NCBI RefSeq assembly: GCF_003019035.1
Contig: NZ_CP027447.1
DNA length: 64,000 nt
Reading direction: 5' to 3' (one strand)
Source: Escherichia coli
GTDB lineage: Bacteria > Pseudomonadota > Gammaproteobacteria > Enterobacterales > Enterobacteriaceae
Shown: positions 1,015 through 40,871 of the stretch, piece by piece
How the letters are laid out: the number at the start of each line of letters is the position of its first letter
Position numbering within the stretch: position 1 is the first letter of the stretch
Position numbers and translations under genes: made by a program
The notes under the pieces: generated by a model
What the model was told of the DNA's origin: nothing
Database searches by the model: none
Seen by the model: only the letters and a program-made list of their open reading frames with translations

Positions 1015-1090
1015 TGGCTCCTCTGACTGGACTCGAACCAGTGACATACGGATTAACAGTCCGCCGTTCTACCGACTGAACTACAGAGGA
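1015..1090 (-). tRNA. asnW: tRNA-Asn (anticodon GUU)
   Basis: Reverse complement is tcctctgtagttcagtcggtagaacggcggactgttaatccgtatgtcactggttcgagtccagtcagaggagcca, identical to the two plus-strand copies; 76 nt with 3' CCA. Confidence 0.93.
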
Positions 1091-2838: not shown

Positions 2839-2914
2839 TCCTCTGTAGTTCAGTCGGTAGAACGGCGGACTGTTAATCCGTATGTCACTGGTTCGAGTCC
2901 AGTCAGAGGAGCCA
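2839..2914 (+). tRNA. asnU: tRNA-Asn (GUU)
   Basis: 76-nt sequence tcctctgtagttcag…ccagtcagaggagcca read directly; K-12-like position between yeeO and cbl. Confidence 0.93.
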
Positions 2915-5246: not shown

Positions 5247-5322
5247 TCCTCTGTAGTTCAGTCGGTAGAACGGCGGACTGTTAATCCGTATGTCACTGGT
5301 TCGAGTCCAGTCAGAGGAGCCA
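5247..5322 (+). tRNA. asnV: tRNA-Asn (GUU)
   Basis: Third identical 76-nt tRNA-Asn copy read directly from the sequence. Confidence 0.93.
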
Positions 5323-8884: not shown

Positions 8885-9391
8885 TTACGAAAGAAGATGG
8901 CATTGCGGAATAGCCAGACTTCCTCGTGTTAACGTCCGACAAAATGCGTCATTGACAGCGGTTTCTCTGGCATGACAGATTTCATTAAGATAATGGATTA
9001 ATGCTACAGCCCCACCCGCCGGACCATTCAGCAAACGGGCATTGTGTTCTGTAATCAAAATTACCGTCGTTCCCTCAGAATGAGCGAGCCATTCTGGTAC
9101 GGATATCTCGCTTTCAGCTGCTATCAATAGCAGCACTGAATAATCGCTATACGCATCTGATAACGATTGCACAGGCCCACCGTCAAAAGGCTGGAAATCT
9201 TGCTGCCAGTCCTCACCAACAAAACAGGTTATTGGCAATATTTCCGCCAGATGTTTCGCCAGATCCACATCTCCAGATAAGAGGCAAAAAAGAGCTATCG
9301 ATTCGGGTTTTATCGTTTTCATGCCCCTCGCCCTCCACTTAATTTCCTGTAATGGCGGTCTGGTTGATAAGCCATGAAACAAGATTGCCAC
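8885..9391 (-). CDS. Hypothetical protein (145-168 aa) at the position of the missing cbi operon; function unknown
   Basis: Open frame between the riboswitch-like leader and cobU. GTG start at 9391, or ATG (MKTIKPESIALF…) with a GGAGG-like RBS at about 9322. I do not recognise a family; may be a remnant or fusion. Confidence 0.35.
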   Translation of the reverse strand: MAILFHGLSTRPPLQEIKWRARGMKTIKPESIALFCLLSGDVDLAKHLAEILPITCFVGEDWQQDFQPFDGGPVQSLSDAYSDYSVLLLIAAESEISVPEWLAHSEGTTVILITEHNARLLNGPAGGAVALIHYLNEICHARETAVNDAFCRTLTRGSLAIPQCHLLS

Positions 9392-9539: not shown

Positions 9540-9705
9540 TGTTGGTATTGACTGACTGGCTGGTCTTCTGGCTTAGCGTCATCCTCTCCCGACCTTCCCA
9601 ATCTCGCGATCAGTGGCATTTTCGGGTTTGTCAGCATTACAGCAGCGGGGGCTGCGAGGGATTTTCACCCTCTTCCCAGGCACAAATGTGCCACACCTGT
9701 CAGCG
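9540..9705 (-). ncRNA. Cobalamin (adenosylcobalamin) riboswitch, cob-operon leader type
   Basis: Minus-strand RNA contains GGGAAGAGGGUGAAAAUCCCUCGCAGCCCCCGCUGCUGUAA (fits the cobalamin core GGGAA…GGUG.AA..CC…GC.G.CCCGC…GU.A), then GCCACUG, then a B12-box AAGCCAGAAGACCAGCC (compare btuB AAGCCCGAAGACCUGCC). Confidence 0.7.
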
Positions 9706-9806
9706 TATGTTATGAGCTGATTTCACTTTTCCCATAACAGGGAAATAACGTTAATTATTCATTCCAGAGTTTATTTAAACCGTCCTCTTTTTTTGGGGCA
9801 TTTACT

Positions 9807-10721
9807 CTATACCGTTTCCATCGCCGCATTATCACTCACTTGCTGTCGATACACCTGCGGCGTAACCTGATAAGTCTGACGGAAAACTTTGCAAAAATAA
9901 CTTGTTTGCGAAAAACCTAAATTACGCGCAATGCTGGCGATGCTCCAGTCACTATGGCACAGTAACTCACGAGCGCTGGCCATCCGTTGTTGGTTTACCC
10001 ACGCATTAAACCCGATTCCATGGTATTTCTTAAATAACTTACTGAAATAATAAGGGCTTAGATAAACGTGCGAGGCGACATCTTCCAGACGCAAATCGTC
10101 TGATAAATGCGCATCAATATAACGTAAAGCTTTTTTCATTTTATTGTCGTGGGGACCAGGCGCACGAGTCTGGCGCAACGAATCTGACTGAGATTTGTTC
10201 TCTTTAATAACCACAAAATTGAGTTGTTTTTTTAGGCAATTTTCTACAATCAACTTCAACAAATCCGCAGAGGCCATAACTCTTGAGTAATCCATCTCAG
10301 GGACTTTGCGAAATTCATTAAGTAATTCGGGATCTGCCTGCCAGCAATCATCGACATTCAGAATATCGACCAAATCGACATCATCATTACGCAGACGAAC
10401 TTGCCCGCACAATACAAAACCAACTAAATGTCCGGCGATTACCAGTGGAATAGAGAAATCGGTTAATCCGGCATGACAGCGATAAATACAAGGCTGATCG
10501 GATTTAGAGGCTTCCAGGCCCCCACAACGATCGCTCATGCGACATCGAGTGCTTAGCTGAGGGTGTTGCCGCATCATCTGACAAAATGGAGTGAAGTTAA
10601 ACAGCTCGGAAATTTCATCGCCGTGAATATTGACCACGACAACCGCAAGGCTGGTCGCCTGCGCAAAATCCTGCGCGATTTTATTAATGAGTTCTGAATT
10701 AAGTGTCGCCGCAGAAATCAT
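9807..10721 (-). CDS. pocR: AraC-family regulator PocR (activator of pdu/cob in response to 1,2-propanediol)
   Basis: 304-aa ORF with C-terminal AraC HTH (…IASIARNLGFSQTSYFCKVFRQTYQVTPQVYRQ…); sits between the cob leader and pduF as in Salmonella. Confidence 0.88.
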   Translation of the reverse strand: MISAATLNSELINKIAQDFAQATSLAVVVVNIHGDEISELFNFTPFCQMMRQHPQLSTRCRMSDRCGGLEASKSDQPCIYRCHAGLTDFSIPLVIAGHLVGFVLCGQVRLRNDDVDLVDILNVDDCWQADPELLNEFRKVPEMDYSRVMASADLLKLIVENCLKKQLNFVVIKENKSQSDSLRQTRAPGPHDNKMKKALRYIDAHLSDDLRLEDVASHVYLSPYYFSKLFKKYHGIGFNAWVNQQRMASARELLCHSDWSIASIARNLGFSQTSYFCKVFRQTYQVTPQVYRQQVSDNAAMETV

Positions 10722-10923
10722 GATAAAACCTCCCAGTTAATTTATTGTTATAGCAAAACAATTGTTTTACATTTAATCTTCACATCATCCTTGATGATTT
10801 ACTGACGAGAAGCACAAAGGACAATAACAAAAGCCTCCGTGAAGCGGGAGACTTTTTAATAAGTTCGGAAAGCAGATCACAAACAGTAAAAAAATAAACG
10901 TTTATAACTGCCAGATTATTTCG

Positions 10924-11733
10924 TTATTCGCTGATTTCTTTAGGCGTTACACTATTGACAGGTAAATTCTTTGCAATGAGATAGCGATAAATCGCCGCAC
11001 CAACACATGCCCCAATGATCGGTGCAATAATGGGTACAATGAAATAAGGAATATTGCGTCCACCAGTCATCGCAATTTCCCCCCAACCCGCAAACCAGGT
11101 GAAAATTTTAGGTCCAAAATCACGCGCTGGATTCATGGCAAAACCGGTTAATGGTCCGGTAGAAGCACCAATAACAGCAACCAGAATACCAATGAGTAAA
11201 GGCGCAAGCGGTCCTTTGGGTACGCCATTACCGTCATCGGTCAACGCCATAATCAACCCCATTAACATGGACGTTATGACCACTTCGACCAACGCAGCTT
11301 GCCATACATTAATCGCCGCTGCTGGATAAGTACTGAAGATACTGGCGAGTTGTAAACTTTCTGCGCTACCACGCACTATATTGTGAGCCGATTCAAAATC
11401 GGTAAACAAACTGCTGTAGAGAGAATATGCCAGAACCGCACCACCAAAGGCACCCGCTAATTGCGCCACACAAAATGGCAGCACTTTACGGGCTGGGAAA
11501 GAGGCAAACAGCCACAGAGCAATGGTAACTGCCGGGTTGAGATGAGCGCCGGAAATACCTGCCGTAAGGTAAACAGCAAGCGAAATCCCTAACCCCCATA
11601 TGATACAAATTTCCCACAGTCCCAGACTTGCCCCGGCAACTTTCAGGGCGCACAAACAACCAATGCCAAAAAAGAGGAACAGTCCGGTGCCCAAAAACTC
11701 GGCAACGCATTGCGCCTTGAGTGAATCATTCAT
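10924..11733 (-). CDS. pduF: Propanediol diffusion facilitator (MIP/aquaglyceroporin family)
   Basis: MIP-family ORF with NPA motif (…GAHLNPAVT…); start set at MNDSLKAQ…; divergent from pduA. Confidence 0.88.
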   Translation of the reverse strand: MNDSLKAQCVAEFLGTGLFLFFGIGCLCALKVAGASLGLWEICIIWGLGISLAVYLTAGISGAHLNPAVTIALWLFASFPARKVLPFCVAQLAGAFGGAVLAYSLYSSLFTDFESAHNIVRGSAESLQLASIFSTYPAAAINVWQAALVEVVITSMLMGLIMALTDDGNGVPKGPLAPLLIGILVAVIGASTGPLTGFAMNPARDFGPKIFTWFAGWGEIAMTGGRNIPYFIVPIIAPIIGACVGAAIYRYLIAKNLPVNSVTPKEISE

Positions 11734-12244
11734 AGTGACACCTTCTTTACGGAGTTTTTCTTTATCAGCCAACTATGCGCTGATTGTTGTGTATACCGAG
11801 CGCAACTATAAAAAATTGCTCTGCAGAAAATATTGCCAACATGCATGACAGACTCGTGTAAAAATCGTGCTAACATAACAAATTATTGTCATTGCCGAAT
11901 CATGCAACACAGCGTTAATCAGTGTTGAAAGTAATAATTCCCACCAAACTTTTACAGTAAAAAATTGCCATCATGACATAATAAAATTGAAACAAATATC
12001 ACAGTTCCTTCCTCGAACCAAACTCAACGAAATATTACTCGCGATTAAACTCACTAGACAACGCAATTAATTCACATTGAAACATCCACAAAATAACCAA
12101 TAAATTAATAACATATAGTTCATAAAAGCAATTTTATAATATTTGTTCTCTATTAATTTTTCTCATTAGCCGATTAAGTCAGCCATTCTTTTTCCTCGCT
12201 TTTTTTTATAGTCATATCGTCAAAAAAATCCAGGCGAGGTCTTT
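11734..12244. promoter_or_regulatory. Divergent pduF / pduA control region
   Basis: About 510-bp AT-rich intergenic region between divergently oriented pduF and pduA; by analogy with Salmonella it should carry PocR-dependent promoters. Individual sites not identified. Confidence 0.5.
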
Positions 12245-12529
12245 ATGCAACAAGAAGCGTTAGGAATGGTAGAAACCAAAGGCTTAACTGCCGCCATAGA
12301 GGCCGCGGACGCCATGGTGAAGTCGGCAAATGTTTTGCTGGTCGGCTACGAAAAAATAGGTTCCGGGCTGGTGACCGTCATCGTTCGTGGTGATGTCGGG
12401 GCGGTAAAAGCGGCAACAGACGCAGGTGCCGCAGCTGCGCGTAACGTCGGCGAAGTAAAAGCCGTGCACATTATTCCCCGCCCACATACCGATGTCGAAA
12501 AAATCTTACCAAAGGGAATTAACCCATGA
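12245..12529 (+). CDS. pduA: Bacterial microcompartment shell protein PduA (BMC-H)
   Basis: 94-aa BMC-domain protein ([30 protein letters not shown]…). Confidence 0.93.
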
Positions 12530-13338
12530 GCAGCAATGAACTGGTCGAACAGATCATGGCGCAGGTCATCGCTCGCGTAGCGACGCCAGAGTATGAGGTT
12601 CTCCCGAAAACCACTCATCAAATACGAGAGACGGCTATGGCAGAAAAAAGCTGCACGTTAACAGAATTTGTTGGCACCGCTATTGGCGACACTGTAGGTC
12701 TGGTCATTGCGAACGTTGATAGCGCCCTGTTGGACGCAATGAAACTTGAAAAACGCTATCGTTCCATTGGCATTCTGGGTGCGCGTATTGGCGCAGGTCC
12801 ACACATTATGGCCGCTGATGAAGCGGTAAAAGCCACCAACACTGAAGTTATTAGCATTGAACTTCCTCGCGATACTAAAGGCGGTGCCGGACACGGCTCA
12901 TTGATCCTCTTAGGTGGCAACGATGTTTCCGACGTGAAACGCGGTATTGAAGTTGCCCTGAAAGAACTCGATCGAACCTTTGGCGATGTCTATGCCAACG
13001 AAGCCGGACATCTTGAGCTGCAATATACCGCCCGCGCCAGCTATGCACTGGAAAAAGCGTTTGGTGCACCATTGGGACGGGCTTGCGGCGTTATTGTCGG
13101 CGCTCCAGCCGCTGTGGGTGTTCTGATGGCCGACACCGCGCTGAAGTCCGCCAATGTGGATGTCGTGGCATACAGCTCCCCCGCTCAAGGCACCAGCTAC
13201 AGCAACGAAGTCATTCTGATTATCTCGGGTGACTCCGGCGCGGTCCGCCAGGCGGTCATCTCCGCACGCGAAATCGGTAAAACCGTGCTTTCGACTCTCG
13301 GCGATACACCGAAAAACGATCGCCCTTCCTACATCTGA
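12526..13338 (+). CDS. pduB: Microcompartment shell protein PduB (tandem BMC)
   Basis: 270-aa ORF overlapping the pduA stop; tandem-BMC-like sequence. Confidence 0.9.
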
Positions 13339-13356
13339 ATTCTCTGAGGCAGATTT

Positions 13357-15021
13357 ATGAGATCGAAAAGATTTGAAGCACTGGCAAAACGCCCGGTCAA
13401 CCAGGACGGTTTCGTTAAAGAGTGGATTGAAGAAGGCTTCATTGCGATGGAAAGCCCGAACGATCCTAAACCGTCAATCAAAATTGTTAACGGCGTCGTT
13501 ACCGAACTGGATGGAAAACCCGCCAGTCAGTTTGACCTGATCGACCACTTTATCGCCCGCTACGGCATCAATCTCGCGCGCGCAGAAGAAGTCATCGCGA
13601 TGGATTCGGTAAAACTTGCCAATATGTTGTGCGATCCAAATGTCAAACGTAGCGATATCGTTCCCCTTACCACAGCAATGACGCCTGCAAAAATCGTCGA
13701 AGTGGTTTCGCAGATGAACGTGGTAGAGATGATGATGGCGATGCAGAAAATGCGCGCCCGTCGAACACCATCACAACAGGCTCACGTCACCAACATCAAA
13801 GATAACCCGGTACAAATTGCCGCCGACGCAGCTGAAGGCGCATGGCGCGGGTTTGATGAACAGGAAACCACCGTTGCCGTTGCTCGCTATGCACCGTTCA
13901 ACGCCATCGCCCTGCTGGTCGGCTCACAGGTGGGACGTCCGGGCGTCTTGACCCAGTGTTCACTGGAAGAAGCCACCGAACTGAAACTCGGTATGTTAGG
14001 CCACACCTGTTACGCCGAAACAATTTCTGTCTATGGTACAGAACCTGTTTTCACCGATGGCGATGATACCCCGTGGTCAAAAGGATTTCTCGCGTCATCC
14101 TATGCGTCTCGCGGCTTAAAAATGCGCTTTACTTCCGGCTCCGGCTCTGAAGTACAGATGGGTTACGCGGAAGGCAAATCAATGCTTTATCTCGAGGCTC
14201 GATGCATTTACATCACCAAAGCCGCAGGCGTTCAGGGTCTGCAGAATGGTTCGGTAAGCTGCATCGGTGTTCCATCAGCTGTGCCATCAGGCATCCGCGC
14301 AGTATTAGCGGAAAACTTAATTTGCTCATCGCTGGATCTGGAATGCGCCTCCAGTAATGACCAGACCTTTACCCACTCGGATATGCGCCGTACCGCACGT
14401 TTCCTGATGCAATTTCTGCCAGGTACCGACTTTATCTCTTCCGGTTTTTCCGCTGTGCCGAACTACGACAACATGTTTGCTGGTTCAAACGAAGATGCTG
14501 AAGACTTCGATGATTACAACGTCATTCAGCGTGACCTGAAGGTTGATGGCGGGCTGCGACCAGTACGCGAAGAAGATGTTATCGCAATCCGCAATAAAGC
14601 CGCTCGCGCTTTACAGGCTGTCTTTGCCGGTATGGGACTACCGCCAATTACCGATGAAGAAGTCGAAGCGGCAACCTATGCCCACGGTTCGAAAGATATG
14701 CCTGAGCGCAATATTGTGGAAGACATCAAGTTCGCCCAGGAGATTATCAATAAAAACCGTAACAGCCTGGAAGTGGTGAAAGCCCTGGCGCAAGGCGGTT
14801 TTACCGATGTCGCCCAGGACATGCTCAACATGCAAAAAGCAAAACTGACCGGCGATTATCTCCATACCTCAGCCATCATCGTCGATGACGGACAAGTGCT
14901 CTCAGCGGTCAATGACATCAATGATTACGCAGGGCCAGCTACAGGTTACCGCCTGCAAGGGGAACGCTGGGAAGAGATCAAAAATATTCCCGGTGCACTT
15001 GATCCCAACGAAATTGACTAA
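13357..15021 (+). CDS. pduC: B12-dependent propanediol dehydratase, large subunit
   Basis: 554-aa ORF (MRSKRFEALAKRPVNQDGFVKEWIEEGFIAMESPNDPKPSIKIV…), canonical PduC. Confidence 0.94.
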   Translation: MRSKRFEALAKRPVNQDGFVKEWIEEGFIAMESPNDPKPSIKIVNGVVTELDGKPASQFDLIDHFIARYGINLARAEEVIAMDSVKLANMLCDPNVKRSDIVPLTTAMTPAKIVEVVSQMNVVEMMMAMQKMRARRTPSQQAHVTNIKDNPVQIAADAAEGAWRGFDEQETTVAVARYAPFNAIALLVGSQVGRPGVLTQCSLEEATELKLGMLGHTCYAETISVYGTEPVFTDGDDTPWSKGFLASSYASRGLKMRFTSGSGSEVQMGYAEGKSMLYLEARCIYITKAAGVQGLQNGSVSCIGVPSAVPSGIRAVLAENLICSSLDLECASSNDQTFTHSDMRRTARFLMQFLPGTDFISSGFSAVPNYDNMFAGSNEDAEDFDDYNVIQRDLKVDGGLRPVREEDVIAIRNKAARALQAVFAGMGLPPITDEEVEAATYAHGSKDMPERNIVEDIKFAQEIINKNRNSLEVVKALAQGGFTDVAQDMLNMQKAKLTGDYLHTSAIIVDDGQVLSAVNDINDYAGPATGYRLQGERWEEIKNIPGALDPNEID

Positions 15022-15030
15022 GGGTGAGAA

Positions 15031-15699
15031 ATGGAAATTAACGAAAAATTACTGCGTCAGATTATCGAAGGCGTGCTGGCAGAAATGCAAACCAGCGACA
15101 AGTCCGTTTCATTTCGTGCACCTGTCTCTGCAACTGTCTCTTCAGTGCCAGATACCGGAAATTTTCTGACCGAAATTGGCGAAGCCCAACAAGGCACTCA
15201 GCAAGATGAAGTCATTATTGCTGTAGGCCCGGCGTTCGGCCTGGCGCAAACCGTCAATATCATCGGTATTCCGCATAAAAACATTTTGCGCGAAGTGATT
15301 GCCGGTATCGAAGAAGAAGGCATTAAAGCCCGTGTGATTCGCTGCTTTAAATCGTCCGATGTCGCATTCGTAGCAGTCGAAGGAGATCGTCTTAGTGGTT
15401 CAGGTATTGCTATCGGTATTCAGTCGAAAGGCACAACGGTTATCCACCAGCAGGGACTTCCTCCCTTGTCTAACCTGGAACTTTTCCCACAAGCGCCTTT
15501 GTTGACGCTGGATACTTATCGTCAGATTGGCAAAAACGCCGCGCGTTATGCGAAGCGCGAGTCTCCACAACCGGTGCCGACCCTCAACGATCAAATGGCA
15601 CGACCGAAATACCAGGCCAAATCTGCCATTTTGCATATTAAAGAGACGAAGTACGTGGTCACTGGCAAAAAACCGCAAGAACTGCGCGTGACGTTTTAA
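15031..15699 (+). CDS. pduD: Propanediol dehydratase, medium subunit
   Basis: 222-aa ORF in the conserved pduCDE order. Confidence 0.92.
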
Positions 15700-15713
15700 C
15701 AAAGGAAACCTTC

Positions 15714-16232
15714 ATGAATACCGATGCAATTGAGTCGATGGTCAGGGACGTGTTGAACCGCATGAACAGTTTACAGGATGCAGCTCCTGTTTCTGCGGTC
15801 CCCAGCGCGTCAATACAGAGCGCCAAAGTGACGGATTACCCGCTGGCAAATAAACATCCGGAATGGGTTAAAACAGCAACCAATAAAACGCTCGACGATT
15901 TCACTCTGGAAAATGTGCTAAGCGATAACGTCACCGCCCAGGATATGCGCATTACCCCTGAAACATTGCGTATTCAGGCTGCGATTGCCAGAGATGCTGG
16001 TCGCGATCGCCTGGCGATGAATTTCGAACGCGCCGCTGAGCTTACCTCAGTACCGGATGATCGCATCCTCGAAATCTACAATGCGTTACGCCCTTATCGT
16101 TCGACTAAGCAAGAACTTATTGCCATTGCTGACGATCTTGAACGGCGTTATCAGGCCAAAATTTGTGCTGCATTTGTCCGTGAAGCTGCGGAACTTTATG
16201 TCGAGCGCAAAAAACTGAAAGGCGACGATTAA
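15714..16232 (+). CDS. pduE: Propanediol dehydratase, small subunit
   Basis: 172-aa ORF in the conserved pduCDE order. Confidence 0.92.
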   Translation: MNTDAIESMVRDVLNRMNSLQDAAPVSAVPSASIQSAKVTDYPLANKHPEWVKTATNKTLDDFTLENVLSDNVTAQDMRITPETLRIQAAIARDAGRDRLAMNFERAAELTSVPDDRILEIYNALRPYRSTKQELIAIADDLERRYQAKICAAFVREAAELYVERKKLKGDD

Positions 16233-16241
16233 GGACGAACT

Positions 16242-18074
16242 ATGCGATATATAGCAGGCATTGATATCGGCAACTCATCAACAGAGGTTGCGCTGGCAAC
16301 GCTCAGTGCAACTGGAGAGTTGTCGTTCGTGAGTAGCGCCCTGGCGGAAACCACCGGAATTAAAGGTACGTTGCGTAACGTCCATGGTATTCAGGAGGCG
16401 CTCGCACAGGCAACGAAAAAAGTCGGCATCAATGTTAGCGATATTTCGCTTATTCGTATCAACGAAGCAACTCCGGTCATTGGTGATGTGGCGATGGAAA
16501 CCATCACTGAAACTATCATCACCGAATCAACCATGATCGGTCACAACCCGAAAACGCCGGGCGGAGTGGGGCTGGGCGTAGGGCTCACCATCACTCCGCA
16601 AGAGTTATTAACATGCCCGGCGGACACACCCTACATTCTGGTGGTGTCATCGGCATTTGATTTTGCCGATATCGCAACAATGATAAACGCCTCCGTACGA
16701 GCCGGATATCAGCTGACTGGCGTTATTCTGCAACGCGACGATGGCGTGCTGGTCAGTAACCGACTGGAAATCCCTTTACCCATTGTTGATGAAGTCCTCT
16801 ACATCGATCGAATACCGCTCGGCATGCTGGCTGCAATTGAAGTTGCCGTTCCTGGGAAAGTTATCGAAACCCTGTCTAACCCGTATGGGATTGCCACCGT
16901 TTTCGCCCTCAATGCTGAAGAGACTAAAAATATTGTTCCTGTCGCGCGGGCGCTAATCGGCAACCGTTCAGCAGTGGTAGTGAAAACGCCTTCTGGCGAC
17001 GTTAAAGCCCGTTCGATACCCGCCGGAAATATCGAACTGCTTTCTGCCGGGCGCACAACGCGGGTTGATGTAGCTGCTGGTGCCGATGCCATTATGAAAG
17101 CGGTCGGTGAGTGCCCAAAACTGGAAAACGTGACGGGAGAACCTGGCTCCAACATCGGCGGAATGCTGGAACATGTTCGCCAGACCATGGCTGAGCTGAC
17201 CAACAAACCCAGCAACGAAATTTTTATTCAGGATTTGCTGGCGATAGATACCTCTGTCCCCGTCAACGTAACCGGTGGTCTGGCAGGTGAATTTTCACTG
17301 GAACAGGCTGTGGGTATTGCCTCTATGGTGAAATCCGACCGTCTGCAAATGGCGATGATCGCCAGTGAAATTAAGCAAAAACTACATGTTGATGTTCAGG
17401 TCGGAGGCGCAGAAGCAGAAGCCGCCATTCAGGGGGCCTTGACTACCCCTGGAACGACACGTCCACTGGCAATTCTGGACTTAGGTGCAGGCTCTACCGA
17501 TGCCTCCATCATCAATCAGAAAGGGGAAATAGTTGCCACTCACCTTGCGGGAGCGGGCGACATGGTAACGATGATTATCGCTCGTGAGCTGGGCTTAAAT
17601 GATCGTTATCTGGCAGAAGAAATCAAAAAGTACCCGTTGGCAAAAGTAGAAAGCCTGTTCCACTTACGCCATGAAGATGGCAGCGTTCAGTTCTTCCCTA
17701 CTCCCCTATCCCCTCATGTATTTGCCCGCGTTTGTGTGGTGAAACCTGACGAACTGGTGCCTATTCCCGGTGATTTGACGCTGGAAAAAGTACGCGCTGT
17801 CCGTCGTAGTGCGAAAGAGCGTGTCTTCGTAACTAATGCCCTGCGCGCGCTACGTCAGGTAAGCCCTGCAGGAAATATTCGCGACATTCCGTTCGTCGTT
17901 CTGGTGGGTGGTTCTTCGCTGGATTTCGAAGTACCGCAATTGGTCACCGACGCGCTGGCACATTATCGACTGGTCGCCGGGCGGGGGAATATCCGTGGTA
18001 GCGAAGGTCCGCGCAATGCGGTAGCTACTGGGCTCCTCATCGCCTGGCACAAGGAGTCGATTCATGGAAAGTAA
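16242..18074 (+). CDS. pduG: Diol dehydratase reactivase, large subunit
   Basis: 610-aa ORF with ATPase-like N-terminus (MRYIAGIDIGNSSTEVALA…). Confidence 0.92.
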   Translation: MRYIAGIDIGNSSTEVALATLSATGELSFVSSALAETTGIKGTLRNVHGIQEALAQATKKVGINVSDISLIRINEATPVIGDVAMETITETIITESTMIGHNPKTPGGVGLGVGLTITPQELLTCPADTPYILVVSSAFDFADIATMINASVRAGYQLTGVILQRDDGVLVSNRLEIPLPIVDEVLYIDRIPLGMLAAIEVAVPGKVIETLSNPYGIATVFALNAEETKNIVPVARALIGNRSAVVVKTPSGDVKARSIPAGNIELLSAGRTTRVDVAAGADAIMKAVGECPKLENVTGEPGSNIGGMLEHVRQTMAELTNKPSNEIFIQDLLAIDTSVPVNVTGGLAGEFSLEQAVGIASMVKSDRLQMAMIASEIKQKLHVDVQVGGAEAEAAIQGALTTPGTTRPLAILDLGAGSTDASIINQKGEIVATHLAGAGDMVTMIIARELGLNDRYLAEEIKKYPLAKVESLFHLRHEDGSVQFFPTPLSPHVFARVCVVKPDELVPIPGDLTLEKVRAVRRSAKERVFVTNALRALRQVSPAGNIRDIPFVVLVGGSSLDFEVPQLVTDALAHYRLVAGRGNIRGSEGPRNAVATGLLIAWHKESIHGK

Positions 18075-18414
18075 AGAGCGTGCACCAGCCATCGTTGTCA
18101 TGGAGATCGGTGACTGTATCACTACATGGGATGAAGTGCTTCTTGGCATTGAAGAGGAAGGTATTCCCTTTCGCATTCAACACATTCCGTCAGGTGAAGT
18201 TATCGATAGCGCCTGGCTGGCGGCTCGTCAATCTCCCCTGTTGGTTGGCATTGCCTGCGATCAGGAAAAACTGATTGTGCATTACAAAAACTTACCGGCA
18301 TCAGCGCCACTGTTTACGCTGATGTATCAACAAGATAACCATGACAGGCGCAGCATCGGCACTAACGCTGCCCGCCTGGTAAAAGGAATTCCCTTCCGGG
18401 AACTCCACTCATAA
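18064..18414 (+). CDS. pduH: Diol dehydratase reactivase, small subunit
   Basis: 116-aa ORF overlapping the pduG 3' end. Confidence 0.88.
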
Positions 18415-18433
18415 TCCACAGGAGAAACGCAGT

Positions 18434-18709
18434 ATGAACAACGCACTAGGACTGGTTGAAACAAAAGGGTTAGTTGGCGCAATTGAAGCTGCAGATGCCA
18501 TGGTTAAATCCGCCAACGTGCAGCTGGTTGGCTATGAAAAGATTGGTTCGGGTCTGATTACGGTGATGGTCCGTGGCGATGTTGGCGCAGTAAAAGCCGC
18601 CGTTGATGCAGGAAGCGCCGCCGCAAGCGCCGTTGGCGAAGTGAAATCCTGCCATGTCATCCCGCGCCCACACAGTGATGTTGAGGCTATTTTACCTAAA
18701 TCAGCATAA
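18434..18709 (+). CDS. pduJ: Microcompartment shell protein PduJ (BMC-H)
   Basis: 91-aa BMC-domain protein, paralogue of PduA ([29 protein letters not shown]…). Confidence 0.92.
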
Positions 18710-18732
18710 CCCCATTCGCTAAGGAGCACAGC

Positions 18733-19155
18733 GTGAAGCAATCACTGGGATTACTTGAAGTCAGTGGTCTGGCACTCGCCATCAGTTGCGCAGATGCTAT
18801 GGCAAAAGCCGCGTCCATCACGCTGGTTGGCCTTGAGAAGACCAATGGCTCAGGCTGGACGCTCATCAAAATCACCGGTGACGTCGCCTCGGTTAATGCG
18901 GCGATCGCGACGGGAGCCAGTTTCGCCGGACAGCGAAATGGCCTCGTCGCACACAAAGTGATTGCCCGTCCGGGAGACGGCATTCTGCCCCACACAACTG
19001 AAGCATTGACTGTGACGGTTGAAACAAGCGAAACACCAGCAACAACCGTCATCTCAGAGATTATCAGTTGTAATTTGTGTCTTAACCCGGCATGTCAGCG
19101 GCAAAAAGGTGAGCCCCGCTCACTTTGCCTGCACGCCAATAAGCGAGGGGAGTAA
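18733..19155 (+). CDS. pduK: Microcompartment shell protein PduK (BMC with C-terminal extension)
   Basis: 140-aa ORF, BMC domain plus Cys-containing tail (…CNLCLNPACQRQKG…). Confidence 0.85.
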   Translation: MKQSLGLLEVSGLALAISCADAMAKAASITLVGLEKTNGSGWTLIKITGDVASVNAAIATGASFAGQRNGLVAHKVIARPGDGILPHTTEALTVTVETSETPATTVISEIISCNLCLNPACQRQKGEPRSLCLHANKRGE

Positions 19156-19157
19156 CA

Positions 19158-19790
19158 GTGGATAAACAAACCTTGCAGGAAACAGTGAGCCAGATTCTGG
19201 ATGAGATGCGCGAGCGCCCTATCCCTCTGGGTGTTTCCAGTCGTCATATTCATCTTTCAACAGCGGATTATTTGCGTCTTTTTCCTGAACAACCGATTAG
19301 CGAGAAAACGCTGTTAATGCAACCTGGCCAATTCGCTGCTGAACAGGTTGTTACGCTGGAGGGACCAAAAGGTAAATTGCACAACGTTCGCTTGTTGGGG
19401 CCGCTACGCAATGCAAGCCAGGTGGAAATTTCCCGTACGGACGCCAGAACGTTAGGGATCACCGCTCCGCTACGCATGTCAGGCGATCTCAGCGGCACTC
19501 CAGGGATTCGTTTGATAAGCCCATTTGCGGAACTGGAGATCACATCTGGCGTCATTGTCGCGCAACGGCATATTCATATGTCTCCGCTGGATGCCCTGAT
19601 TTATGGCGTTACGCATGGCGATAAAGTGGCGGTTGCCATTAAAGGTGATGAGCGACGACTGATATTCGAAAACGTCGCTGTTCGCGTCTCTCCGGATATG
19701 CGTCTTGAAATGCATATTGATACCGATGAAGCCAACGCCGCAGGGGCTGATAGCCCTGACGTTTTTGCCACACTGGTGTCAGTGCCATGA
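19158..19790 (+). CDS. pduL: Phosphate propanoyltransferase
   Basis: 210-aa ORF at the conserved position. Confidence 0.88.
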   Translation: MDKQTLQETVSQILDEMRERPIPLGVSSRHIHLSTADYLRLFPEQPISEKTLLMQPGQFAAEQVVTLEGPKGKLHNVRLLGPLRNASQVEISRTDARTLGITAPLRMSGDLSGTPGIRLISPFAELEITSGVIVAQRHIHMSPLDALIYGVTHGDKVAVAIKGDERRLIFENVAVRVSPDMRLEMHIDTDEANAAGADSPDVFATLVSVP

Positions 19791-20278
19791 ATAACATGCT
19801 GATGCAACGTATTGTTGACGAAGTGGTTTTTCGCCTTAAACAACGTGCGGGAAAAACACTCGTGCTGACTGTTTTTCAACTGCGAGACGCCAGCGTTCAA
19901 GAGATAGTTCATCAGTATGCATCATTACAAATCCGATATGTCGATCTGCCGTTGTTACGACAACTTGCGGAGAACAAAACGTCAGATCGAGCAGCAATTC
20001 AGATACACGAAACGTTAGCCTGGGGATTGCACATTCAATTGTCGTTGCAGCGTCATTTCCTGAACGCCATTGAATTGAAGACTCTCGCCCGTCTACCGCT
20101 AAGCTGGTGCGACGAGCAAGGGCAACCGATCTACCTTCATCGTGATCGACTTTTAAATTATGCCGATATTGCACAGTTAAGCTCGGGAATACTGGTGTTA
20201 CAGCGAAAATGTTGTGTGACCGCACTGGCTCGTGAAGCGGCAATTACCCGAAATATTCAGTTAATCAGGCAGGAGTAA
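19787..20278 (+). CDS. pduM: Microcompartment structural protein PduM
   Basis: 163-aa ORF; length and position match PduM. Confidence 0.82.
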   Translation: MNNMLMQRIVDEVVFRLKQRAGKTLVLTVFQLRDASVQEIVHQYASLQIRYVDLPLLRQLAENKTSDRAAIQIHETLAWGLHIQLSLQRHFLNAIELKTLARLPLSWCDEQGQPIYLHRDRLLNYADIAQLSSGILVLQRKCCVTALAREAAITRNIQLIRQE

Positions 20279-20281
20279 CCT

Positions 20282-20557
20282 ATGCATCTGGCTCGAGTCA
20301 CTGGCGCGGTAGTATCCACGCAAAAATCACCTTCTCTGATCGGGAAAAAACTGCTGCTGGTTCGCCGGGTCAGTGCTGACGGCGAACTGCCTCTCACGCC
20401 ATTAACCGGCGACGAAGTTGCCGTTGATTCCGTCGGCGCAGGCGTTGGTGAGTTGGTACTCCTCAGCAGTGGTTCCAGCGCCAGACATGTGTTTTCCGGC
20501 CCTAACGAAGCCATCGACCTAGCAGTGGTCGGCATTGTCGATACGCTTTCGCGCTAA
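20282..20557 (+). CDS. pduN: Microcompartment vertex protein PduN (BMC-P / EutN-CcmL family)
   Basis: 91-aa ORF ([28 protein letters not shown]…) typical of pentameric vertex proteins. Confidence 0.88.
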
Positions 20558-20568
20558 GGAGCTGAAAG

Positions 20569-21576
20569 ATGGCAATTTATACCCGAACAGGTGATTCAGG
20601 AAGTACGTCTTTATTTACCGGACAGCGCGTCAGCAAAACTCATCTACGTGTCGAAACCTATGGCACGCTGGATGAACTGAACGCGACACTCAGTCTGTGT
20701 TATTGCGCCACCGCCATCGAAAGCCATCGCATCTTACTGGAAGCCATTCAACAACAGATATTTTGGTTTAGCGCCGAACTCGCCAGTGAAAGCGAACAGC
20801 CGTCAGCGCAGCAGCGTTACATCGGTACGGAAGAAATTGCCGCGCTGGAAAACGCGATCGATAGCGCAATGAACGCCGTCCCCCCGGTTCACAGCTTCAT
20901 TCTGCCTGGTCGATGTGAAGCTGCAAGCCGCATGCATTTCGCCCGCACGGTGGCTCGACGGGCTGAAAGACGTCTGGTTGAACTGACAACAGAAACCACC
21001 GTCCGGAATGTTTTGCTGCACTATATCAACCGACTTTCCGATTGCCTGTATGCCCTCGCCCGCGTGGAAGACAACGTTGCTCATCAAAACCTGATGATTC
21101 AGGAAATCACAAAACGTTATCACGAAGCCAACCACACACCAGCATTGAAGGAACGCACAATGCCGCTCACTTTTCAGGATCTTCACCAGCTCATTCGTAG
21201 TGCGGCAATGCGCGCAGATGAACTGCATATTCCCGTTGTCATCAGCATTGTTGATGCCAACGGAACAGAAAGTGTTACCTGGCGGATGCCTGATGCCCTG
21301 TTGGTCAGCAGTGAACTGGCACCGAAAAAAGCCTGGACCGCCGTGGCGATGAAAACGGCAACCCACAAACTTGCTGATACCGTGCAACCCGGCGCGCCGC
21401 TTTACGGGCTCGAAAGCCATATGCAAGGCAAAGTCGTCACTTTTGGTGGCGGCTTCCCCCTCTGGCGTGACGGAAAATTGCTTGGCGGGCTTGGCATCAG
21501 CGGCGGTAGCGTTGAACAAGACATGGATATTGCCCAAAGCGCAATGGCGGCAATTAACGTGGGAGTAAACCAATGA
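20569..21576 (+). CDS. pduO: ATP:cob(I)alamin adenosyltransferase PduO (with C-terminal DUF336-like domain)
   Basis: 335-aa ORF (MAIYTRTGDSGSTSLFTGQRVSKTHLRVETYGTLDELNA…), canonical PduO-type N-terminus. Confidence 0.92.
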   Translation: MAIYTRTGDSGSTSLFTGQRVSKTHLRVETYGTLDELNATLSLCYCATAIESHRILLEAIQQQIFWFSAELASESEQPSAQQRYIGTEEIAALENAIDSAMNAVPPVHSFILPGRCEAASRMHFARTVARRAERRLVELTTETTVRNVLLHYINRLSDCLYALARVEDNVAHQNLMIQEITKRYHEANHTPALKERTMPLTFQDLHQLIRSAAMRADELHIPVVISIVDANGTESVTWRMPDALLVSSELAPKKAWTAVAMKTATHKLADTVQPGAPLYGLESHMQGKVVTFGGGFPLWRDGKLLGGLGISGGSVEQDMDIAQSAMAAINVGVNQ

Positions 21577-22958
21577 ATAACTCTGAATTAGAAACACTGA
21601 TCCGCAATATTCTGCGTGAGCAGCTTGCCCCCGCTACGCAACGAGCGCAAAGAAACGCTATTTTCCAGACTGTTGATGAAGCGGTCTGCGCAGCACACCA
21701 GGCCTTTTTACGCTTTCAACAGTGCCCGCTTAAAACCCGTAGCGCCATTATCAGCGCCATTCGCGAAGAATTAATGCCCCGCCTTACCGAACTGGCAGAA
21801 GAAAGCGCCAGTGAAACAGGGATGGGAAATAAAGAGGATAAGTATCTAAAGAACAAAGCAGCACTCAATAATACGCCAGGAATTGAAGATTTAACCACCA
21901 CTGCACTAACCGGTGATGGTGGCATGGTTTTGTTTGAATACTCTCCGTTTGGGGTCATTGGCTCGGTCACGCCAAGCACCAACCCCACGGAAACCATCAT
22001 TAACAACAGCATCAGCATGCTGGCAGCAGGTAATAGCGTCTACTTCAGTCCACACCCGGGAGCCAAAAACGTTTCGTTAAAACTGATTACCATAATCGAA
22101 GACATCGCGTTTCGCTGTAGTGGCATTCATAACCTGATCGTTACCGTATCTGAACCGACCTTTGCTGCTACCGAACAGATGATGGCGCACCCTAAAATCA
22201 GCGTTCTGGCGATTACCGGTGGCCCGGGGATCGTCGCCATGGGAATGAAAAGTGGCAAGAAAGTGATTGGTGCCGGTGCGGGTAACCCACCCTGCATTGT
22301 CGATGAAACGGCGGATATTGTGAAAGCCGCCGAGGACATCATCAACGGCGCTTCATTTGATTACAACCTACCGTGTATCGCTGAAAAAAGCCTGATTGTC
22401 GTGGCGTCAGTGGCAGAGTATTTAATTCAACAGATGCAAAGCTTTGGCGCACTTCTTCTTAACCATGAACAAACGGAGAAATTGCGTGCAATTTGCCTGC
22501 CAGACGGTAGCGCCAACAAAAAACTGGTTGGGAAAAGCCCATCAGCCTTGCTGGAAGCGGCAGGCCTCCCTTTGCCCGCAAAAGCGCCGCGCCTACTGAT
22601 TGCTGTTGTCGACGCCAATGATAGTTGGGTTACTTGTGAACAACTGATGCCAATGCTGCCCATTGTGAAGGTCAACGATTTTGATAGCGCTCTCACCCTG
22701 GCGCTGAAAGTGGAAGACGGCTTGCACCACACGGCAATTATGCACTCGCAGAACGTCTCACGGCTCAACCTTGCCGCACGCGTTATGCAAACCTCAATCT
22801 TTGTCAAAAACGGCCCCTCCTGGGCGGGCATTGGCGTCGGCGGCGAAGGCTTTACCACCTTTACCATTGCAACACCGACCGGAGAAGGGACAACGTCAGC
22901 ACGGACTTTTGCCCGCTCACGACGCTGCGTGTTAACCAGCGGCTTTTCAATTCGCTAG
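21573..22958 (+). CDS. pduP: CoA-acylating propionaldehyde dehydrogenase
   Basis: 461-aa aldehyde-dehydrogenase-family ORF with an N-terminal encapsulation-like helix. Confidence 0.92.
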   Translation: MNNSELETLIRNILREQLAPATQRAQRNAIFQTVDEAVCAAHQAFLRFQQCPLKTRSAIISAIREELMPRLTELAEESASETGMGNKEDKYLKNKAALNNTPGIEDLTTTALTGDGGMVLFEYSPFGVIGSVTPSTNPTETIINNSISMLAAGNSVYFSPHPGAKNVSLKLITIIEDIAFRCSGIHNLIVTVSEPTFAATEQMMAHPKISVLAITGGPGIVAMGMKSGKKVIGAGAGNPPCIVDETADIVKAAEDIINGASFDYNLPCIAEKSLIVVASVAEYLIQQMQSFGALLLNHEQTEKLRAICLPDGSANKKLVGKSPSALLEAAGLPLPAKAPRLLIAVVDANDSWVTCEQLMPMLPIVKVNDFDSALTLALKVEDGLHHTAIMHSQNVSRLNLAARVMQTSIFVKNGPSWAGIGVGGEGFTTFTIATPTGEGTTSARTFARSRRCVLTSGFSIR

Positions 22959-22968
22959 AGAAACGGAA

Positions 22969-24081
22969 ATGAATACTTTTTCACTGCAGACGCGTTTATA
23001 CAGCGGACCAGGAAGTCTCAAGGTACTTAGCCGTTTCTCTCATAGACACATCTGGATTATTTGCGATGCCTTTCTGGCACACTCACCACTCATTGACACG
23101 TTGCATCAGGCGCTGCCCGACAGTAATCGTCTCAGTATTTTTAGCGAAATAACGCCCGACCCAACTATCCAGACCGTGGTGAAAGGCATTGCGCAAATGC
23201 AGACTTTACGCCCGGATGTGGTTATCGGTTTTGGCGGCGGTTCTGCCCTGGACGCCGCAAAAGCGATTGTCTGGTTTGGTCGCCAGTGTGGCATTGAAAT
23301 TGAAACCTGCGTAGCCATTCCTACCACCAGCGGTACCGGTTCCGAAGTGACCAGTGCTTGTGTCATCAGCGATTCTGAGAAAGGGATTAAATTTCCCCTT
23401 TTCGATAATGCACTTTATCCGGATATCGCGATCCTTGATCCATCTTTGGTCGTCAGCGTGCCACCGGCGATAACGGCCAATACCGGGATGGATGTTTTAA
23501 CCCATGCACTTGAAGCTTATGTTTCTCCCCGCGCCAGCGACTTCACGGATGCACTGGTCGAAAAAGCCGTGCAAATTGTTTTTCAATACCTGCCCACTGC
23601 AGTGAAGAAAGGCGATTGTCTTGCCACCCGTGGCAAAATGCATAATGCATCGACGCTTGCAGGAATAGCCTTTAGCCAGGCCGGACTCGGTTTAAACCAT
23701 GCAATTGCTCATCAACTCGGCGGACAGTTTCATCTGCCGCACGGCCTGGCGAATGCGCTCCTGCTCACGGCAGTTATCCGCTTTAATGCTGGCGATCCGC
23801 GCACAGCCAAACGCTATGCCCGGCTGGCGAAAACGTGCCATTTATGCCCGGACAACGCCAATGACACCGCCAGCCTGAATGCACTTATTCAACATATTGA
23901 GCAGCTTAAAACAACCTGTACGCTGCCGACTCTTACCAATGCGCTGAAAGAAAAAAAAGCAGAATGGTCAGTTCGCATACCAGATATGGTTCAGGCGGCA
24001 CTGGCGGATGCAACGTTGCGTACCAACCCGCGTGCGGCTGATGCTTCCGCGATTGCAGAACTGCTCGAGGAGTTGTTATGA
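22969..24081 (+). CDS. pduQ: 1-Propanol dehydrogenase (iron-containing ADH family)
   Basis: 370-aa Fe-ADH-like ORF (…GGGSALDAAKA…). Confidence 0.9.
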   Translation: MNTFSLQTRLYSGPGSLKVLSRFSHRHIWIICDAFLAHSPLIDTLHQALPDSNRLSIFSEITPDPTIQTVVKGIAQMQTLRPDVVIGFGGGSALDAAKAIVWFGRQCGIEIETCVAIPTTSGTGSEVTSACVISDSEKGIKFPLFDNALYPDIAILDPSLVVSVPPAITANTGMDVLTHALEAYVSPRASDFTDALVEKAVQIVFQYLPTAVKKGDCLATRGKMHNASTLAGIAFSQAGLGLNHAIAHQLGGQFHLPHGLANALLLTAVIRFNAGDPRTAKRYARLAKTCHLCPDNANDTASLNALIQHIEQLKTTCTLPTLTNALKEKKAEWSVRIPDMVQAALADATLRTNPRAADASAIAELLEELL

Positions 24082-25421
24082 ATGTCGGATTAACCTCCTG
24101 CGACGACCAGACCATCCGCGAGCGAGTACAAGCAGCAGGTGTCGTGGGTGCTGGCGGCGCAGGTTTTCCAACCCATATTAAGCTACAAGCGCGTGTTGAC
24201 ACGTTCCTGGTGAATGCGGCGGAATGCGAACCCATGTTGAAAGTGGATCAACAGTTAATGGCGCAGCAAGCCAGCCGCCTGCTTCGCGGTGTTCACTATG
24301 CGATGAAAGCCACCGGGGCCAGTAGCGGAATCATCGCGCTGAAAGAGAAATATCAACTGGCAATAAACGCACTCACCCCCCTATTACCACCGGATATCCG
24401 CCTGCATATTTTGCCCGACGTTTACCCCGCAGGAGACGAAGTGCTGACCATCTGGATGGCAACTGGTCGCCGCGTTCCACCCGCTGCATTACCCGTTAGC
24501 GTCGGTGTGGTGGTCAATAATGTTCAAACCGTACTTAATATTGCCAGAGCCGTCGAGCAACAGTATCCAGTGACGCGCCGCACACTCACTATTAATGGTG
24601 CAGTGGCGAAACCAATAACGGTAACCGTCCCCATCGGCATGTCTTTACGTGAAGTCCTGGCGCTGGCGGGCGGCGCAACAGTAGATGCTCCTGGTTTTAT
24701 CAATGGCGGGCCGATGATGGGAAGTTTGATCACATCGCTCGACACACCCGTCAGCAAAACCACTGGCGGCTTGCTGGTTTTACCCAACTCTCATTCACTG
24801 ATCCAACGTCGAATGCAGAATGACCGCAGCGTACTTACCGTCGCGAAAACTGTTTGTGAGCAATGCCGCTTGTGTACCGATCTCTGCCCACGTCATTTAG
24901 TCGGTCACGAACTGGCACCCCATTTATTAGTACGTGCGGTTAACTACCAACAGCTCGCTACGCCACAACTGTTACTGACGGCGCTCACCTGTTCGGAGTG
25001 CAACGTCTGCGCCAGCGTCGCCTGTCCGGTAGGAATTTCACCAATGCGCATAAACCGCCTGCTTAAGCAGGAATTACGCGCACAAAATCTCCGCTACGAA
25101 GGTGCTTTAAATCCTGCAGATCCCTTGGCAAATTATCGACTGATTCCCGTAAAACGGCTGGTAACCAGACTGGGCTTAACCCCGTGGTATCAGGATGCGC
25201 CATTGTCTGAACAGGTGCCTCAGCCCGAAAAAGTGACGTTATTGTTACGCCAGCACATCGGTGCCAGCGCAATTGCGTGTGTACAAAAAGGCGATCGCGT
25301 CGTTCATGGGCAATGTGTAGGTCAAATTCCACACGGCACATTAGGTGCCCCCATTCATGCCAGTATTGATGGCATGGTCAGCGATGTGACAGAAAACGCG
25401 ATTACGCTTGTGAGAGGTTAA
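24078..25421 (+). CDS. pduS: Cobalamin reductase PduS (Fe-S flavoprotein)
   Basis: 447-aa ORF with two Cys clusters ([12 protein letters not shown]… / [13 protein letters not shown]…). Confidence 0.9.
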
Positions 25422-25423
25422 CG

Positions 25424-25978
25424 ATGTCGAAAGCGGTAGGTATTTTAGAACTTAGCAGTATCGCGAAAGGGATGGAAACCGGCGACGCCATGCTGAAAAG
25501 CGCCAACGTTGAGTTACTGGTCAGCAAAACGCTATGCCCCGGAAAATTTCTGCTGATGCTCGGTGGCGATGTGAGCGCGGTGCAACAGGCCATCAACAGC
25601 GGTGCTTCCCTTGCTGGTGAAATGCTGGTCGACAGTCTTGTCCTGCCGAATATTCATCCCAGTCTCCTTTCTGCAATCAGCGGACTGAACCATGTTGAGC
25701 AGCACCGGGCTGTCGGCGTAGTCGAAACCTGGAGTGTCGCTGCCTGCATTGACGCTGCCGATTGTGCTGTCAAAGCTGCGAATGTCATTCTCGTTCGCGT
25801 GCATATGGCTTTTGGCATTGGCGGAAAATGCTACATGGTGGTTGCTGGCGATATTTCAGATGTTAATAACGCGGTCTCTGTCGCCAGCGAGCGTGCGGGA
25901 GAAAAAGGTTTGTTGGTCTATCGGTCGGTGATTGCCCGTCCACATGAAGCCATGTGGCGTCAGATGGTGGAGGGATAA
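25424..25978 (+). CDS. pduT: Microcompartment shell protein PduT (tandem BMC)
   Basis: 184-aa tandem-BMC ORF. Confidence 0.9.
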
Positions 25979-26328
25979 TGACAACTCAGCACACAACTGA
26001 ACGGATGATTCAGGAATATGTCCCTGGTAAGCAGGTCACGCTGGCACATGTCATCGCCAATCCTGGGAAGGATCTGTTTAAGAAATTGGGTTTACCAGAC
26101 ACCGTTTCTGCTATTGGCATTCTGACGATTACCCCCAGCGAAGCATCTATCATCGCATGCGATATCGCCACAAAATCAGGCGCTGTAGAGATCGGTTTTC
26201 TTGATCGTTTTACCGGTGCCGTAGTGCTGACTGGTGATGTTTCAGCCATTGAATATGCACTTAGCCAGGTTACCCGTACGCTGGGTGAAATGATGCGCTT
26301 TACCGCCTGCCCCATTACGCGGACCTGA
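25954..26328 (+). CDS. pduU: Microcompartment shell protein PduU (permuted BMC)
   Basis: 124-aa ORF overlapping the pduT 3' end. Confidence 0.88.
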
Positions 26329-26332
26329 CGTT

Positions 26333-38500: not shown

Positions 38501-40871
<2,371 letters not shown>

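Follow-up and report, generated by a model that had tools for sequence, protein, structure and literature searches.

The pduF and pduA genes diverge from a common spacer, which in Salmonella forms part of the pdu/cob regulon. The original prediction for the corresponding DNA of Escherichia coli proposed a large AT-rich divergent control region for pduF-pocR and the pdu operon. It left open whether the Salmonella architecture is retained in this host, where the cob partner was thought to be gone. We addressed this question in a 64,000-nt stretch of contig NZ_CP027447.1 (assembly GCF_003019035.1), hereafter the window. The spacer is very probably the E. coli orthologue of the Salmonella pdu/cob control region, with two back-to-back activator-dependent sigma-70 promoters, of which the pduF-side one is predicted. 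This reading draws on gene context, full-length homology, the invariance and spacing of sequence elements, reduced polymorphism and the conserved DNA-binding domain of PocR; the flanking genes, the homology, the Ppdu core and the box spacing bear out the divergent control region as first proposed. Its Salmonella counterpart has been under study since the 1990s, and an orthologue of this kind was to be expected.

Genomic context and distribution of the spacer

Open reading frames, Pfam matches and RefSeq annotation agree on the flanking genes. The start of pduF (269 aa, MIP family, minus strand) is at 11733 and that of pduA (a BMC protein, plus strand) at 12245, which leaves a spacer of 511 bp, within which RefSeq annotates no features. 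From RefSeq, ORF and Pfam data, the gene order is cobT, cobS, cobU, a hypothetical ORF, a cobalamin riboswitch, pocR, pduF, the spacer, pduA and the rest of the pdu operon. The following features frame the analysis:

11734–12244, no strand assigned: pduF-pduA divergent intergenic control region, 511 bp, 32.9% GC
10924–11733, minus strand: pduF, propanediol diffusion facilitator (Pfam MIP, RefSeq)
9807–10721, minus strand: pocR, AraC-family activator reading the spacer (Pfam PocR and HTH_AraC)

The GC content of 32.9% compares with 46.8% for the whole window, and eight runs of at least five A or T bases occur in the spacer, in agreement with the predicted AT-rich gap of about 510 bp with A/T tracts. 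Equal AT-richness is reached by 7% of 511-bp windows, the majority of them in the 47–61 kb region, which contains very AT-rich stretches.

The spacer is carried by 640 of 5426 complete E. coli genomes, chromosomally in every case, with at least 95% identity to the window spacer in 637 of the 640 carriers; that of strain SCU-301 is 100% identical. The pdu operon is an accessory trait, present in about 12% of complete E. coli genomes. In E. coli it has been associated with gut strains, adherent-invasive ones among them. In pdu-positive adherent-invasive E. coli (AIEC), pduC is induced on fucose and required for growth on propanediol (PMC9220930).

At this locus (L022), the operon runs from pduA to pduV (about 12245–26776) with tmaR directly after it, and pduW and pduX, found at the 3′ end of the Salmonella operon, are absent. 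A further locus, L023 from E. coli WB61, retains the last 107 bp of the spacer (equivalent to 12138–12244 of the window) beside IS1/IS3 debris; given this remnant and a truncated pduB, it represents a decayed pdu locus. Elsewhere in the window, Rfam models identified STnc240 (35054–35128, minus), the histidine operon leader (37426–37549, plus) and STnc490 (45250–45373, minus).

Homology with Salmonella and constraint across genera

Loci for comparison were retrieved through the exact Salmonella PduA sequence, and a scan of a genome collection with PduF added E. coli-type loci as well as other genera (Escherichia sp., Intestinirhabdus, Pseudocitrobacter, an enterobacterium, Yersinia and Tolumonas). 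Locus L019 matched base for base four promoter strings from SL1344 dRNA-seq (pduA, pduF, pocR and cbiA; PMC3293720 supplement) and was for this reason used as the Salmonella Typhimurium reference.

Aligned by blastn, the window spacer and the Salmonella spacer gave a single full-length alignment of 539 columns, 61.8% identical (112 bits, E 3e-29), against a best score of 31 bits in 100 shuffles; the two regions are homologous from end to end. The flanking genes share 76–85% DNA identity with Salmonella, and the spacer, at 62%, has therefore diverged more than the genes, in a patchy manner. Conservation with the Salmonella region thus holds for the full-length homology, but not evenly, the centre being poorly conserved. 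An alignment of 11 sequences placed the conserved islands as follows, in window coordinates:

11735–11746: pduF ribosome-binding block
11805–11811: ACTATAA
11827–11839: AAAATATTGCCAA
11875–11888: ATAACAAATTATTG
11959–11968: AAAAAATTGC
11998–12003: ATCACA
12070–12077: ATTCACAT
12129–12134: CAATTT
12176–12213: 38-bp AAGTCAGCCATTCTTTTTCCTCGC(T8)ATAGTC
12230–12244: pduA ribosome-binding block

Of the 244 columns conserved in the seven sequences from outside the E. coli type, 193 have the same base in the window. Polymorphism among E. coli-type sequences affected 34 of these 244 conserved columns against 101 of the 267 others (Fisher p = 6e-10), and the difference persisted when the central part (11765–12170) was taken alone (27/166 against 95/240, p = 3e-7). 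This lower polymorphism points to continuing constraint on the same positions in the E. coli host. At the level of sequence, the architecture of the control region is retained in E. coli despite the loss of Pcob.

The E. coli spacer has the same flanking genes, orientation and chromosomal neighbourhood as its Salmonella counterpart. The Ppdu core and −10 are identical, the distances from box to −10 are the same and PocR is 90% identical, whereas identity over the whole spacer is only 62%. E. coli differs further in extra AAAAWWTTGC copies over the pduF promoter, and in having neither a perfect IHF consensus nor the overlapping −35/−10 of a weak distal pduF start. A broader likeness exists to the divergent regions of the AraC/XylS family such as araC-araBAD, where the regulator-side and operon promoters likewise share one AT-rich spacer, with activator-dependent promoters, poor −35 hexamers, multiple activator sites and a possible role for DNA bending. 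In contrast to that type, in which activator sites directly abut the −35, the main PocR boxes are centred near −86, and PocR has a PocR-type sensory domain where AraC has an arabinose-binding domain. PocR is also not known to act by looping or repression, a further difference from araC-araBAD.

The pduA-side promoter

The 38-bp block conserved across genera belongs to the promoter next to pduA (Ppdu), where the following elements lie:

12176–12213, plus strand: Ppdu core promoter block AAGTCAGCCATTCTTTTTCCTCGC(T8)ATAGTC, 34 of 38 positions conserved across genera
12180–12188, plus strand: CAGCCATTC, over the poor −35 within the core
12207–12212, plus strand: Ppdu −10 hexamer TATAGT, matching the SL1344 dRNA-seq promoter string
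12219–12222, plus strand: putative pduA transcription start by homology to the Salmonella start (homologous position 12220), leader of about 25 nt
12234–12239, plus strand: pduA ribosome-binding region GCGAGG, in the invariant block CCAGGCGAGGTCTTT; ATG at 12245

In SL1344, dRNA-seq placed the pduA start 26 nt upstream of the ATG, with a promoter string ending in ...AAGTCAGCCATTCTTTTTCCTCGCATCTTCTTATAGTCCCAACTA; the end of this string is also given as ...TATAGTCCCAACTA, with a 26-nt 5′ UTR (PMC3293720 supplement). The mapped start and the promoter string identify TATAGT as the −10. The core in the window matches this mapped Salmonella promoter, from which the E. coli start position is inferred by homology. 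The −35, CCATTC/CATTCT, is a poor one, which is what one expects where a promoter depends on an activator. Yersinia and Tolumonas still keep CAGCCATTCTTTTT and the 18-bp spacing to TATAGT or TATATT. A generic promoter and terminator scan of the spacer returned one plus-strand consensus promoter match (12077–12106), fewer than in shuffled sequences, and no terminators; with their poor −35 hexamers, both TATAGT promoters escape such a scan.

We also considered an anti-Shine-Dalgarno hairpin between CCTCGC (12194–12199) and GCGAGG (12234–12239), extended by T8/A7. This candidate was rejected because the 26-nt UTR of Salmonella leaves CCTCGC untranscribed and the pairing is broken in 2 of 11 species. 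As a separate observation, the CsrA-bound pduA leader RNA of Salmonella has a GGA (in CGGAAC; L019 4968–5000), where the E. coli leader (12213–12244) has GTCAAAAAAATCC and no GGA ahead of its start codon; pduA may thus be controlled differently by CsrA in the two hosts.

The predicted pduF-side promoter and its leader

According to PMC10433801, PocR has target promoters upstream of pduF as well as of pduA, with which a promoter on the pduF side of the E. coli spacer would agree. On the pduF side, the following elements were delineated:

11739–11744, minus strand: pduF Shine-Dalgarno AAGGTG, inside the invariant block GTGACACCTT
11764–11784, minus strand: possible stem-loop of the predicted pduF leader, its 6-bp stem AUCAGC ... 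GCUGAU enclosing a loop that varies in sequence and length
11805–11810, minus strand: predicted pduF-proximal −10 TATAGT of a PocR-type promoter, predicted start about 11797, leader of about 64 nt
11810–11836, plus strand: two AAAAWWTTGC copies (11810–11819 and 11827–11836), over the spacer/−35 zone of the predicted pduF promoter

The ACTATA block, TATAGT when read on the minus strand, is kept in Yersinia as well as throughout the 11-sequence alignment, and its box geometry is that of Ppdu and Pcob; we predict that this hexamer belongs to a PocR-dependent promoter for pduF-pocR. The AAAAWWTTGC pair over it is specific to E. coli-type loci, while other genera have AAATTGTTGGCAAC at that place. 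The only pduF start in the SL1344 dRNA-seq data, taken from cells without propanediol, is weak and distal, with a 353-nt UTR and 7 and 1 reads (PMC3293720 supplement). Neither E. coli nor the Citrobacter-like sequences keep its −10. We discarded this start as an E. coli promoter, as it is weak in Salmonella and its −10 is not kept outside that genus.

RNAalifold predicted the stem in the pduF leader in the 11 sequences, with one fully compensatory pair (C-G to U-A) that represents a single evolutionary event. The fold had a z-score of −0.27, no more stable than shuffled sequences; together these data constitute weak evidence for a stem-loop. We also rejected the notion that the two promoter halves are inverted duplicates, as their ungapped identity, anchored on the −10, was at shuffle level (z about 0).

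PocR, its candidate boxes and their spacing

The PocR protein encoded here is 90% identical to that of Salmonella, and both helix-turn-helix segments are identical. The original work on boxes I and II of Pcob is reportedly that of Rondon and Escalante-Semerena in 1996. As described in the text of PMC11264322, Salmonella Pcob has two footprinted PocR boxes of 20 and 48 bp that lie 52 bp apart, box II ending 9 bp from the −35. For Salmonella Ppdu, two candidate boxes with 80% and about 56% similarity have been proposed, separated by a 215-bp gap, and each of them, placed downstream of a constitutive promoter, gave PocR-dependent repression in a roadblock assay (PMC11264322). An MBP-PocR fusion binds a Salmonella pduA promoter fragment (PMC10433801).

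We rebuilt the positions of the Pcob and Ppdu boxes from the text description and the published primers, not from the published sequence figure. On the Salmonella spacer, one register satisfied 16 of 20 positions of box I and 26 of 48 of box II, with exactly 215 bp between them. Both Pcob boxes and box I of the spacer have a common 12-mer core, RCAAWWWWTTGY. Across the 8–10 kb loci of cob-positive genomes, this word occurs at exactly three sites, one in each Pcob box and one in the spacer; in the corresponding E. coli-type loci only the spacer match is present. The candidate boxes in the window are:

11877–11896, minus strand: equivalent of Salmonella 'Ppdu box I', candidate PocR box, palindrome ACAAATTATTGT at 11878–11889
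11957–11968, plus strand: distal box-like GTAAAAAATTGC, about 165 bp upstream of the predicted pduF start, its AAAAWWTTGC conserved in nearly all genera
12063–12074, plus strand: putative box-like GCAATTAATTCA, about 151 bp upstream of the Ppdu start and overlapping ATTCACAT
12100–12147, plus strand: equivalent of the Salmonella 'Ppdu box II' 48-mer, candidate PocR box, core GCAATTTTATAA at 12128–12139

The box I palindrome, ACAA..TTGT in E. coli and GCAA..TTGC in Salmonella, has its centre at about −86 relative to the predicted pduF start. On the other side, GCAATTTTATAA begins 79 bp upstream of the Ppdu −10, with its centre likewise at about −86, and is only a half match to the palindrome. 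The spacer holds three copies of the AAAAWWTTGC word, and the remaining 63.5 kb of the window a single one; about 0.02 would be expected per shuffled spacer.

In the whole window, RCAAWWWWTTGY occurs four times against 1.04 expected, a number reached in 1 of 100 shuffles; the three matches outside the pdu region (34943–34954, 40611–40622 and 62290–62301) probably represent AT-rich palindromes that arose by chance. Locus L005 (Escherichia sp. MOD1-EC7003) combines a 523-bp spacer of the Salmonella/Citrobacter type with an intact Pcob that has both boxes, and there Pcob box I and the spacer box both read ACAA..TTGT rather than GCAA..TTGC, a coordinated change at two sites.

The distances between these elements are regular. 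The 12-mer, or its half match GCAATTT..., starts 77–79 nt upstream of the −10 at five promoters: E. coli Ppdu, the predicted E. coli pduF promoter, Salmonella Ppdu, the TATAGT on the pduF side of Salmonella and, with box II, Salmonella Pcob. In the last of these, the same core RCAAWWWWTTGY lies 77 bp upstream of a TAcAGT-type −10 with a weak −35, and a second copy about 76 bp further upstream; Pcob, which is absent from this E. coli locus, serves cob, whereas the spacer studied here serves pduA and pduF. Pcob box I, at −159.5, is comparable to the spacer elements at about −165 (pduF side) and −151 (pduA side). The distance from ACTATA to the palindrome is 72–73 bp in 9 of 11 aligned sequences and in Yersinia, wherever the scan finds both, and that from CAATTT to TATAGT is 76–78 bp in all 11, with a full palindrome at this place in Yersinia. 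The distal GTAAAAAATTGC is 80–81 bp from the palindrome where both elements are recognizable. Between the two −10 hexamers, 395–397 bp were found in E. coli-type loci against 405–407 bp in all others, a net change of 10 ± 1 bp, or one helical turn.

These data suggest a symmetric arrangement in which one spacer would serve two PocR-dependent promoters, with a distal element and, near −86, a proximal box for either of them. From sequence comparison we infer the E. coli transcription starts and the occupancy of the boxes by PocR. The pduA-side promoter (−10 at 12207–12212, start at about 12220) would drive pduA through pduV, and the pduF-side promoter (−10 at 11805–11810, minus strand, start at about 11797) is predicted to drive pduF-pocR, both having a weak −35 and presumably depending on an activator. 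PocR with bound 1,2-propanediol would occupy AT-rich boxes with the core RCAAWWWWTTGY, of which the proximal one lies about 86 bp upstream of each start, with further box-like elements at about −150 to −165. Transcription of the microcompartment operon, along with that of the transporter and the regulator, may then increase in concert, as a positive feedback loop. Such a correspondence means that regulatory knowledge from Salmonella, and PocR-based biosensor parts, should be transferable to E. coli with some confidence.

Global regulators

Chen et al. reportedly mapped five promoters of the Salmonella pdu/cob region in 1995, and a requirement for IHF is said to have been described by Rondon and Escalante-Semerena in 1997. 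Our statements on the promoters P1, P2 and Ppoc rest on secondary citations (PMC10433801, PMC4245221). The original prediction held that the region integrates PocR with Crp and ArcA/IHF inputs. Of this, candidate PocR boxes are retained, but Crp input acts mainly on pocR expression at Ppoc, outside the spacer (PMC4245221), and scans of the spacer were not significant. Direct action of Crp, ArcA and IHF inside the spacer, such that global control would be integrated here and not only via pocR expression, is possible but rather doubtful. The candidate sites are:

11988–12003, no strand assigned: Crp-like TGAAACAAATATCACA, two mismatches, right half ATCACA alone conserved
12095–12110: weak IHF-like matches AACCAATAAATTA (plus strand) and TATTAATTTATTG (minus strand), one mismatch each

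The pattern TGTGA-N6-TCACA, with up to two mismatches, has this one site in the spacer, and in the window 23 sites were found against 28 expected. While the ATCACA half is conserved in all genera, the left half matches poorly and varies between sequences. About 200 bp separate the site from either start, a non-canonical distance from both promoters. The exact IHF consensus WATCARNNNNTTR was not found in the window spacer, and matches with one mismatch are at chance frequency, with 2.2 expected per spacer. A perfect WATCARNNNNTTR does occur in Salmonella and two relatives (L005 and L017), at an aligned position 142 bp upstream of the pduA ATG; the S. Typhimurium copy shares bases with the −35 that belongs to the weak distal start of pduF. 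The Crp and IHF sites looked for in the spacer therefore amount to one Crp site with two mismatches and no exact IHF site, at chance level.

ArcA-like repeats near 12098–12113 are a candidate for direct control, but ArcA-like matches (two mismatches) have no positional conservation across genera, and Fnr-like matches in the spacer were likewise at chance level and not positionally conserved. Another ArcA-like sequence, GTTAATCAGTGTTGA (11914–11928), was rejected, its repeat spacing being 10 rather than 11 and its sequence not conserved. Crp and Arc control have been reported in the literature, which favours some global input. Catabolite repression has been attributed mainly to lower pocR expression, because PocR overexpression bypasses glucose repression (PMC4245221), and the dependence on ArcA has been suggested to act through pocR (PMC3075218).

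Less likely readings: drift in the centre or a hidden gene

A different reading, which we consider quite unlikely, is that only the core promoters and the ribosome-binding sites are functional, and that the 300-bp centre is drifting AT-rich DNA, perhaps horizontally acquired and bound by H-NS, with box-like words as by-products of AT-richness and shared ancestry. The poor conservation of the centre and the lower identity of the spacer relative to the genes would agree with this, as would the chance-level scans for Crp, IHF, ArcA and Fnr. Moreover, a Salmonella reporter with 373 bp upstream of pduA is still responsive to propanediol and PocR, and the upstream end of this fragment maps inside the box I palindrome. 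Drift does not account for the lower polymorphism in E. coli of conserved columns within 11765–12170, nor for distances from the elements to the −10 that stay constant within 1–2 bp across genera. The specificity of the 12-mer for the Pcob boxes and the spacer in the 8–10 kb loci, and a net length change of one helical turn (10 ± 1 bp), also argue against it.

An unannotated gene for a small protein or small RNA, hidden in the spacer besides the promoters, is extremely improbable: the 6-bp stem with its compensatory pair and several ORFs of 21–48 aa might hint at one, but the leader fold is no more stable than shuffles, there is no terminator-like site in the spacer, and the ORFs, mostly with TTG or GTG starts and in poorly conserved sequence, were unconvincing and set aside. 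An Rfam search of the spacer found no family at the gathering threshold, nor at E ≤ 1.

Loss of Pcob and retention of the riboswitch

The orthologous control region, with its two proposed PocR-dependent promoters, stands in E. coli beside a locus from which cob has been lost in part. The premise that the cob partner is gone is correct as regards the cbi genes and Pcob with its PocR boxes, which are deleted, but the cobalamin riboswitch and cobUST remain. The riboswitch is intact (109 bits, 9541–9715, minus strand), with the cbiA start codon next to it. Compared with Salmonella, about 230 bp are missing, which held the Pcob promoter together with its two PocR boxes and the first part of the leader. 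From the pocR stop to the riboswitch there are 91 bp here and 83–91 bp in all E. coli-type loci, against 226–325 bp in five of the six cob-type loci compared and 48 bp in the sixth, RIT691. This riboswitch-scar arrangement is present in 643 E. coli genomes. Beyond the riboswitch, the region 8885–9322 holds a hypothetical ORF, a scar of the cbi operon with no Pfam match, followed by cobUST.

On the minus strand, the interval from pocR to the riboswitch has no terminator-like site, so that read-through from pocR into riboswitch-cobUST is possible. On the spacer side, the loss of one helical turn and the gained box-like words would fit a phased nucleoprotein complex that spans both promoters, with PocR boxes near −86. 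That the E. coli-type locus has been rewired in both respects, by read-through of pduF-pocR into riboswitch-cobUST and by a phased nucleoprotein complex over the spacer, is speculative, and we regard it as unlikely. If true, propanediol and B12 would jointly control cobinamide salvage, which would need no promoter of its own. Modest leads for experiment lie in the box geometry and in a riboswitch arrangement that lacks Pcob.

The pduF-pocR spacer contains an Rfam match to the small RNA STnc230 (76 bits, 10782–10865, plus strand), antisense to the pduF-pocR transcript. It is found at the same place in Salmonella and other loci, and overlaps a terminator-like hairpin after pduF, near the Salmonella pocR start. 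The window also holds three tRNA genes with identical Rfam scores, at 1018–1090 (minus strand), 2839–2911 (plus strand) and 5247–5319 (plus strand).
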